From NCBI GenBank assembly GCA_017449785.1, contig JAFTFA010000190.1, forward strand, positions 12,342-76,341: DNA of 64,000 nucleotides, in the 5' to 3' direction. Below the pieces are notes generated by a model. The model made no database searches and was not told the origin of the DNA. It saw only the letters and a program-made list of their open reading frames with translations. Shown here piece after piece: positions 61,077-61,330 of this stretch (its first letter is position 1; each line of letters opens with the position of its first letter). The position numbers and the translations under genes are program-made. This DNA is from Muribaculaceae bacterium (GTDB lineage: Bacteria > Bacteroidota > Bacteroidia > Bacteroidales > Muribaculaceae).

Positions 61077-61330
61077 AATAAAAACGAGAAGAGACTGACA
61101 CCTCTGAGAATGAATAAGTTTCTATACGGCATCCAACGGCCAATCTACTTCACACAGGTGTTCAGGGCCAGCTTAGCGCTTGGATTCTGCAATCCAAAAG
61201 AACTGTGGTCTACGTCCTCTTCTTCGACTTCAAAGTTACTTTTTTTTGAGATAGTGAGAGAAATCCCGATGGACAAAGTGTTATACTCCGGGACTTCTCT
61301 GACGACACAAGGAGGCGGACCTTGCTTCGC
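61077..61330 (-). ncRNA. Candidate bridge (seek) RNA region in the 5' non-coding end of the IS110-family element
   Basis: 282 nt of non-coding sequence between the IS end and the recombinase ATG. It holds an internal exact -7 box (61231-61238), the hairpin TTGGATT-CTGC-AATCCAA (61180-61197), and CTCTTCTCGTTTTTATTT at the 3' side. The extent and fold were not determined. Confidence 0.35.
61231..61238 (-). promoter_or_regulatory. -7 promoter box inside the IS 5' non-coding end
   Basis: CAAAGTTA on the plus strand (TAACTTTG on the minus strand), 181 nt upstream of the recombinase ATG. Confidence 0.4.

Follow-up and report, generated by a model that had tools for sequence, protein, structure and literature searches.

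A predicted bridge RNA with reversed target-guide order in the left end of an IS110-family element from a Muribaculaceae bacterium

Does the long non-coding left end of an IS110-family insertion sequence (IS) from a Muribaculaceae bacterium encode the guide RNA of its own recombinase and, if so, is this RNA laid out like those already described? The element in question lies on the minus strand of a 64,000-nucleotide stretch of contig JAFTFA010000190.1 (hereafter the window), where positions 59670 to 61325 hold an intact IS110-family insertion sequence of about 1.66 kb, delimited by alignment of its flanks with paralogous repeats and by comparison with three relatives (L161 to L163). Unless stated otherwise, all window features given below are on the minus strand. 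An earlier note, made from the letters of the window, had placed a candidate bridge RNA in the non-coding end 5' of the recombinase gene. A conserved fold and a set of guide matches support that proposal, and we put the probability that this end encodes the bridge (guide) RNA of the element at roughly 0.88. The presence of such an RNA in an IS110 element is expected: the bridge-RNA mechanism has been described for IS621 (Durrant et al. 2024, PMC11208160; Hiraizumi et al. 2024, PMC11208158), and, according to the former paper, bridge RNAs were predicted in 85.7% of IS110 elements. Its architecture is a distinct variant.

The relatives on which this analysis draws were obtained mainly through the recombinase. 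A protein search returned thousands of homologues, ranging from 97% down to about 40% identity, and contigs of ten homologue clusters were fetched, along with genome and metagenome loci. A metagenome scan yielded a single close relative (62% amino-acid identity), the close relatives having come from the protein search and from contig look-ups; the closest genome relative is a metagenome-assembled genome of Prevotellaceae. Distinct insertion sites, at least six in cluster P0006 and at least nine in cluster P0028, define the ends and the target preferences of these elements.

Fifteen non-redundant upstream regions were aligned with MAFFT, and a covariance model, R1, was built from the alignment. 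In these 15 sequences, 85.8% of the cells are paired, compared with 32 to 52% when the 3' partners are slid; 12 pairs change on both sides, and the covariation score is 0.271 versus 0.178 for shuffled alignments, with none of 500 shuffles reaching the observed value. A larger alignment of 47 sequences (A2) gives 85.6% paired cells, as opposed to 30 to 44% with slid partners, compensatory changes in 28 of 32 pairs, and a score of 0.633 versus 0.182. Among related IS110-family elements, about 60 have this conserved fold of about 150 nt upstream of their recombinase gene; covariation among homologous copies, named by the earlier note as a check on its proposal, is found. In relatives with about 40% amino-acid identity, which belong to several phyla, the R1 matches are on the recombinase strand and, where positions were compared, just 5' of the gene. 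The frequent G-U pairs in the helices fit the sense strand only. Within the window, R1 has one match, at 61078 to 61231 (137.8 bits, E = 4.5e-32), and about 61226 and about 61080 are the probable ends of the predicted transcript. An Rfam scan of 59300 to 61700 returned nothing relevant; this null result is uninformative, because the IS621 left end likewise goes without a match, Rfam containing no bridge-RNA model.

The predicted RNA is made up of two modules enclosed by a closing helix, P1. From 5' to 3', P1 is followed by the target module, with stem PT, loop strand X, hairpin P2, and a variable block of 7 to 8 nt, and then by the donor module, with stem P4, loop strand Z, hairpin P5, the block UAUAGAAG, and strand Y. 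In the window, the 5' strand of P1, GAAGAG (61222 to 61217), pairs with CUCUUC (61093 to 61088); CGA at 61226 to 61224 may extend the helix, and UCG at 61087 to 61085 follows the 3' strand. All 6 pairs of P1 are compensatory in the 47 sequences, with variants such as AAACGAG/CUCGUUU and GCUAAGC/GCUUAGC. This closing complementarity had been noticed before and stands, although its coordinates had been given 1 to 3 nt off; the GTTTTTATTT read after CTCTTC and before the open reading frame (ORF) is present as well. PT, which closes the target module, pairs GACC (61207 to 61210) with GGCC (61169 to 61166), and in the larger alignment all 4 of its pairs covary, with 95.7% of cells paired. At the tip of this module, P2 (61180 to 61197) is the hairpin TTGGATT/AATCCAA (61197 to 61191 and 61186 to 61180; UUGGAUU/AAUCCAA in the RNA) that had already been singled out; its UGGA/UCCA is invariant in the 15 close sequences, and 5 of 6 pairs covary in the 47. 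The donor module is closed by P4, in which CUG.ACACCU (61156 to 61165) pairs with AGGUGUCAG (61103 to 61095); all 5 pairs of P4b covary in the larger alignment, where 91% of them are formed. Its tip is the P5 hairpin UGGC...GCCG (61127 to 61142), with 96.6% of cells paired and a closing pair that is U-G in 41 of 47 sequences. Directly after P1 comes a U-run (61080 to 61084), with similar U-runs in several relatives, which may represent the RNA 3' end or a termination site; a simple terminator scan made no call at this run.

The loops of both modules carry segments that match DNA of the element or its flanks. Each RNA was compared with the flanks and ends of its own element in an unbiased 5-mer scan, with the other loci serving as controls, and at family level three of the four guide relations are present. 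The first is the left-target guide. Sense 5-mers of the left flank recur at RNA positions 53 to 55 in 30 to 33 of 39 loci, where about 1 is expected, and the left-target 7-mer is exact in 32 of 40 loci, represented by 25 distinct words, as opposed to 1.5% of non-cognate pairs. The near-identical loci L175 and L177 have the guides UUUAGAG and AGUUUAG, respectively, and their flanks differ correspondingly. Beyond the core, the next 1 to 2 nt of this block track the opening nucleotides of the left end (AC, UA, UC, C). In the window, the putative guide is GCGCUAAG(C) at 61171 to 61179, in the same sense as the left flank, the core, and the first 1 to 2 nt of the left end. The heptamer GCTAAGC to which the earlier note had drawn attention is indeed part of this 8-nt block tracking the left flank, but lies at 61177 to 61171, one base from where it had been placed.

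The second relation involves block X, ACAGUUCUU (61198 to 61206), on the 5' strand of the target loop, a candidate right-target guide that reads antisense to core plus right flank. At the X position, 5-mers antisense to the right flank occur in 5 to 9 of 33 loci (0.6 expected); the mean antisense identity between X and the right flank is 5.02 of 9 versus 3.78 (permutation 0/20000, p<5e-5), and runs of at least 6 nt are found in 17% of cognate pairs versus 0.7%. The clearest matches are those of L112 (9 nt), L137 (7 nt), and L002 (6 nt), while the right-flank match is poor in many natural copies. At family level, the target loop's two strands match the left and the right half of the target. The third relation is that of the left-donor guide, UAUAGAAA(C), which sits just 3' of P5 (61118 to 61126) in the same sense as the right end, TATAGAAA(G). 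At the right end plus core, this 8-mer recurs with no more than 1 mismatch in 38 of 38 loci and without any in 25, compared with 1.1% exact matches in non-cognate pairs, and the guide of the window copy matches its right end exactly. Guide matches to target and donor, a further check that had been named, are found in this way at family level; the order of the guides, presumed beforehand to be that of IS621, is reversed.

The fourth relation concerns the left end of the donor. Within the donor loop, the right end is matched by the left-donor guide and the left end by block Z', in the same sense and at a subterminal site. Z', GAAGUAGAU in the window (61143 to 61151, on the 5' strand of the donor loop), is the 8-nt part of strand Z immediately 5' of P5 and is sense-identical to left-end positions of about +20 to +28 (about 61305 to 61293 in the window). 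Z' and the left end share at least 5 nt in 70% of cognate versus 10.6% of non-cognate pairs, and at least 6 nt in 35% versus 2.1%, with about 20 different words among them; the family comparison gave no antisense signal between Z' and the left end. With moderate confidence only, we regard Z' as a donor guide for this subterminal site, which in the window would be GAAGT at 61293 to 61297.

The position of the site is tied to a subterminal inverted repeat, with the right copy GTGTTATA at 59676 to 59683 and the left copy TATAACAC at 61278 to 61285, 40 nt inside the left end. The left copy is nearly constant at +29 to +38 (+39/40 in the subfamily of the window copy) in 34 of 35 loci, the right copy lies 6 to 7 nt from the right end, and the two covary (ATAAC, GTAAC, GGAAC, CGAAC). 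The site matched by Z' is about 5 nt outside this repeat and, measured from the repeats, the relation of Z' to the left end mirrors that of X to the right-end junction. Between the terminus and the Z' site, the window copy has a tip hairpin, CAAGG-TCCGCCT-CCTTG (61308 to 61324); hairpins read by eye at the same place in relatives have other sequences (TTGGGC/GCCCAA, GTATC/GATAC, GTGTC/GACAC). A separate 13-bp hairpin, AGAGAAGUCCCGG...CGGGAUUUCUCU (61257 to 61302), encloses the left repeat copy and was seen only in the window and in L161 to L163.

Other candidate relations were tried and set aside. The segment CUUCUCGU, which matches ACGCGAAG, was rejected as a right-donor guide: L161 to L163 are without ACGCGAAG, which is a word of the repeat unit, and CUCUUC is the 3' strand of P1. 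A discontinuous right-donor guide, GAGG...GUCU for AGAC plus CCTC, was likewise rejected, as GAGG/GGGG pairs and covaries with the 5' strand of P4. A match between GAUAC of the P5 loop and left-end GTATC (9 loci versus 2.1 expected) was not adopted, being weak, confined to one subfamily, and overlapping the P5 stem. For a handshake-type match between the nucleotides after the left-donor guide and the right flank, no correlation was seen by eye in the listed pairs.

These relations depend on where the element begins and ends. The insertion locus is an intergenic repeat unit downstream of a phosphofructokinase-like gene, and the joined flanks are colinear with two uninterrupted paralogous units, at 11650 to 11728 and 11740 to 11822 (alignment A4, 85% mean column identity). 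The first nucleotides of the left end are (G)CAAGG (61325/61324). The three copies with 97% amino-acid identity, L161 to L163, have the same left-end start, CAAGGTCC / CAAGGTCCGCC, after a different flank word. Because these copies lack ACGCGAAG and this word belongs to the repeat unit, ACGCGAAG is a word of the target repeat and not the start of the left end. The boundary AG|ACGCGAAGC and the donor "AG-acgcgaagc" of the earlier note are consequently 8 to 9 nt off, the relatives starting inside that boundary. The asymmetry of the two ends on which it had relied is real, but the left non-coding end measures about 274 nt (61324/5 to 61051) instead of 282, and the right end about 22 nt (59691 to 59670). 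The left flank (61326 to 61351) consists of the repeat-unit words CACGCTAAG CCGCGAAG ACGCGAA, as judged from repeat and paralog comparison, and the right flank (59623 to 59669) of G, T7, and the palindrome TTGCTCGCAAGGGGCTCGCAAT of the same repeat unit.

The element has no terminal inverted repeats and no target duplication longer than a short shared core. The trinucleotide AAG is common to both junctions, which leaves two options for the core, AA (61327 to 61326 and 59671 to 59670) and AG (61326 to 61325 and 59670 to 59669). In relatives, AG is shared at both junctions across many insertion sites. For the subfamily of the window copy, we favor AA because both sense guides align without gaps to those of the AG-using relatives (GCGCU-AA-GC, UAUAGA-AA-C), AG being possible from the sequence alone. 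The right-end terminus, left donor plus core, reads TATAGAAAG (59669 to 59677), and the circle junction formed by the right and left ends would read TATAGAAA|GCAAGGTCC.

The repeat into which the element is inserted is a composite resembling repetitive extragenic palindromic (REP) sequences. It occurs at 11643 to 11965, 59545 to 59666, and 61325 to 61351; its components, in order, are CACGCTAAG, (GCCGCTAAG)n, a T-run, and the palindrome TTGCTCGCAAGGGGCTCGCAAT. Both the IS and a miniature element of 57 nt (59473 to 59529), located 140 nt downstream of the IS, have this repeat as their insertion target. The miniature element has IS-like tips: one side carries G-TGAGGTTGAC together with a TTGAC/GTCAA hairpin, the other CATATATAGAAA. 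Its insertion site, CGCGAA|G...TTTTT, belongs to a further copy of the repeat unit, for which an uninterrupted paralog exists at 11880 to 11962 (alignment A5). As a probable non-autonomous derivative, it could be mobilized in trans by the IS.

The recombinase itself is encoded by an intact ORF of 452 amino acids (59692 to 61050), identified through Pfam and NCBIfam. It has the Pfam domains DEDD_Tnp_IS110 (PF01548) and Transposase_20 (PF02371) and matches the NCBIfam model NF033542, "IS110 family RNA-guided transposase," with 227.6 bits (cutoff, 140). Its similarity to the solved transposases of IS621 and ISCro4 is distant, and D27, E74, D111, D114, and S345 align with D11, E60, D102, D105, and S241 of IS621, all of them conserved. 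An N-terminal RuvC-like DEDD domain, a C-terminal Tnp domain with the catalytic Ser, site-specific insertion at a short shared core, and a long end with a covarying fold together place the element among those of the IS110-family RNA-guided recombinases. ORF finding extends this protein into the RNA gene, from a TTG start at 61143 (483 amino acids; additional span, 61051 to 61143), and two database relatives (P0002, P0003), annotated with 521 amino acids, are extended in the same manner. An ORF of 87 amino acids on the plus strand (61110 to 61373) overlaps the RNA and is probably spurious.

We infer that the RNA is probably transcribed from an internal promoter. The box TAACTTTG at 61238 to 61231, preceded by an A-run, is an exact match to the Bacteroidota-type -7 box, as had been noted before, and in 14 close relatives it is kept as GTAAYTTTG or GTATCTTTA at a fixed distance of about 5 nt 5' of P1. 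It lies 93 nt inside the left end. The motif TAnnTTTG is enriched in the window (31 matches versus 13.7 expected), which fits a Bacteroidota host, and inspection of the sequence revealed none across the putative circle junction; a sigma-70 scan of the left end, which does not cover Bacteroidota promoters, found nothing. Because the internal box is conserved and no such motif spans the junction, the RNA may, unlike that of IS621, be made from the integrated copy. The transposase mRNA would then probably arise by read-through.

Several observations weigh against a functional bridge RNA in this copy or temper the evidence for the family. The 47 sequences were fitted to R1 and therefore lean toward its structure, the weakest members having E values of up to 0.5, and all sequences are phylogenetically related, so that the shuffle statistics overstate their independence. 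The stability of the 150-nt RNA does not exceed that of shuffled sequence (z = -0.9; z = -1.8 for the opposite strand), and the z of -3.8 obtained for a 284-nt fold comes mostly from the separate left-end hairpin at 61302 to 61257; as the folding energy of the single sequence is not significant, the structural case rests on comparative evidence. The PT stem of the window copy contains one A-C mismatch. Its left guide, GCGCUAAG (61179 to 61172), agrees with the flank ACGCGAAG at 5 of the 7 positions before the shared G, reading CGCUAA where the flank reads CGCGAA; an exact CGCTAAG word lies 16 nt upstream. Block X matches just AAG, the core plus G, of AAGTTTTTTT and not the right flank TTTTTTT, which the earlier note had taken to be the guide target. 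The match of Z' is limited to 5 nt, GAAGU/GAAGT (61151 to 61147 versus 61297 to 61293). Finally, no block antisense to the left-end terminus, corresponding to an IS621-type right-donor guide, was found; only the 1 to 2 nt after the left-target guide track that terminus.

In light of the mismatched guides, the RNA family could be real and the window copy nevertheless stranded or impaired, through an off-target, half-matched insertion or through drift of its guides or tip, with its ends and sites poorly recognized. In addition to the incomplete left guide and the right-target block confined to core plus G, this account can draw on the closely related L161, which matches its own left flank perfectly (CCGCUAAG versus CCGCTAAG), and on the tip of the subfamily (CAAGGTCC...), which is unlike that of all relatives (ACCCYC..., TACCG...), its Z'-to-left-end match being the weakest of the set, as well as on the half-matched insertion reported for IS621 (10.64898/2026.08.31.748434), with which the poor right-flank matches of many natural copies agree. 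We nevertheless consider it rather unlikely. The ORF is intact with all catalytic residues present, both ends are intact, and the RNA scores as high as those of relatives. The same left-end tip is found beside at least two different sets of flanks (window, L161/L162), which indicates that this variant has moved, and the 57-nt derivative nearby has the same tips. This copy was probably inserted at a half-matched site within the repeat family to which its guides appear to be tuned.

Two further explanations would do away with a guide RNA altogether. The conserved structure could be a 5' leader of the transposase mRNA that controls translation or stability; it does lie directly upstream of the ORF, and no separate promoter for the ORF is visible, so that the two are probably cotranscribed, but a leader without guide function would not vary in step with both flanks and with the right end across dozens of independent elements, which makes this explanation highly improbable. 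We give equally little credence to the idea that the conserved elements act as DNA, as recombinase-binding sites or left-end hairpins: the subterminal inverted repeat and the tip hairpin are DNA-level features of the left end, but the helices tolerate G-U and not A-C pairs (in addition to the U-G pair of P5, many occur in P1, PT, and P4), a strand-specific pattern as for RNA, a promoter box is conserved at a fixed distance, and the protein family is RNA guided.

With a bridge RNA as the preferred reading, the element can be compared with known systems. As in IS621, the long left end encodes the RNA, which lies upstream of the gene for a DEDD/Ser recombinase and comprises two stem-loop modules, target then donor, each with an internal loop and a distal hairpin. 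Also shared are a sense guide of 7 to 9 nt for left flank plus core, a sense guide for right end plus core, and a shorter antisense guide for core plus right flank; furthermore, the left-target guide is followed by nucleotides that agree with the beginning of the left end, as can be seen on a real IS621 copy (L197), which reads ATCGGGCCT-TG. The differences are numerous, however. In IS621 (L197; PMC11208160), the sense guides ATCGGGCCT and ACAGTATCA are on the 5' strand of each loop, whereas here they are on the 3' strand, after the hairpins. The IS621 promoter is formed across the circle junction, whereas here the -7 box is internal and no junction-spanning promoter is evident. The core is CT in IS621 and AG or AA here, and IS621 has a terminus-proximal right-donor guide, of which none was found here. 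The relationship between the recombinases is distant (E = 4e-11), the present one being longer by about 125 amino acids, and with filters off the best match of R1 to the IS621 left end had 5 bits (E about 1).

The L197 locus also contains, at 1578 to 1670 of the fetched sequence (Escherichia coli chromosome NZ_CP024240.1), a partial IS621 left end of 72 nt that ends exactly at the guide sequence ATCGGGCCT and is followed by a complete IS621. It looks as if the target-mimicking DNA of the guide itself had been used as a recombination site.

In the order of its guides, the RNA resembles the seekRNAs of IS1111 elements, in which the top-strand complement comes first; in ISEc21, of the IS110 type, it comes second (Siddiquee et al. 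2024, PMC11187229). Here, X is 5' of P2 and the left-target guide is 3', the IS1111 order, and subterminal inverted repeats are present. IS1111 elements (ISEc11, ISPa11, ISKpn4), however, encode the RNA downstream of the transposase gene and have inverted repeats of 11 to 13 bp with terminal extensions of 7 bp and 3 bp (PMC11187229), whereas the RNA described here is upstream, the downstream end measures only about 22 nt, the repeat 5 to 10 bp, and the extensions about 33 to 40 nt on the left and 6 to 7 nt on the right. ISEc21 (PMC11187229) shares the upstream non-coding region and short segments matching both target strands, but with the bottom-strand match first, opposite to the order found here. 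The present family combines the RNA location of the IS110 type with the guide order of IS1111, and its repeat geometry fits neither. As far as published descriptions go, ISPpu9 and ISPpu10 of Pseudomonas putida, which target REP sequences (PMC12288879, 10.64898/2026.03.19.712850), are similar in inserting into multicopy intergenic repeats, but differ in host phylum and repeat family.

Some observations on relatives bear on targets and distribution. Elements of cluster P0006 (L164 to L173) use the target (A)CTATTCAG|GTG, about 3 of 7 distinct right flanks being without a right-flank match, and those of cluster P0028 (L175 to L184) are inserted inside tandem GTTTAGAG heptad-like repeats. In the distant relatives L101, L057, L082, and L120, the right end of another IS110 relative (GTTATATAAGAG|) forms the left flank, and L160 has another left end as its right flank; these five represent nested or head-to-tail copies, with target guides that look like donor guides. 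An unnamed IS110-family element with 38.6% amino-acid identity, on E. coli plasmid pEc4097 (L198; NZ_CP047278.1, 1928 to 2150, minus strand), is of a type common on plasmids of Citrobacter, Klebsiella, and E. coli. By eye its layout is the same, with X and a hairpin; GUAAAAAAAC agrees with the flank TTAAAAAAC and UUCAGGAAG with the right end CTCAGTAAG, and its core is probably AA; despite this similarity, R1 found no match on it.

Considering the evidence as a whole, we propose the following model for the window element. The RNA would consist of a target module (PT, P2) and a donor module (P4, P5), closed by P1 and followed by a U-run. The recombinase would bind this RNA and, together with it, join the circular right-end/left-end junction to CGCTAA|G... 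sites in the host repeats, the target predicted from the guides being GCGCTAA-G-AACTGT. Strand exchange would occur at the AA (or AG) core, by a chemistry that we infer from homology with IS621.

We tentatively suggest that this is a third, undescribed configuration of IS110-family guide RNA, although the odds lie somewhat against so strong a claim: an upstream RNA with an internal promoter active in the integrated copy, target guides in IS1111 order, and a donor strand that reads the bottom strand of a subterminal left-end site, about 20 to 28 nt in, next to the covarying inverted repeat and past the conserved tip hairpin, and not the terminus. Our literature search found no paper on the present clade; the layout may already appear in the figures of Durrant et al. 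The predicted configuration is widespread, in Bacteroidota, Desulfobacterota, and Planctomycetota as well as, by eye, in the enterobacterial plasmid IS. If it is correct, the geometry of the donor synapse would differ from that solved for IS621.

Bridge recombinases are under development as programmable tools for genome rearrangement, and their mechanism is known mainly from IS621 and its close relatives. A large natural clade, with thousands of homologues, many of them in gut and rumen Bacteroidota, could provide new orthologues and design rules. For annotation, the lessons are that the left end of such an element is an RNA gene, that gene callers overextend the transposase ORF into it, and that the targets are intergenic repeats of the host. 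Permuted guides, an internal promoter, and subterminal donor reading would mean that the RNA-guided logic of this family tolerates another loop topology.

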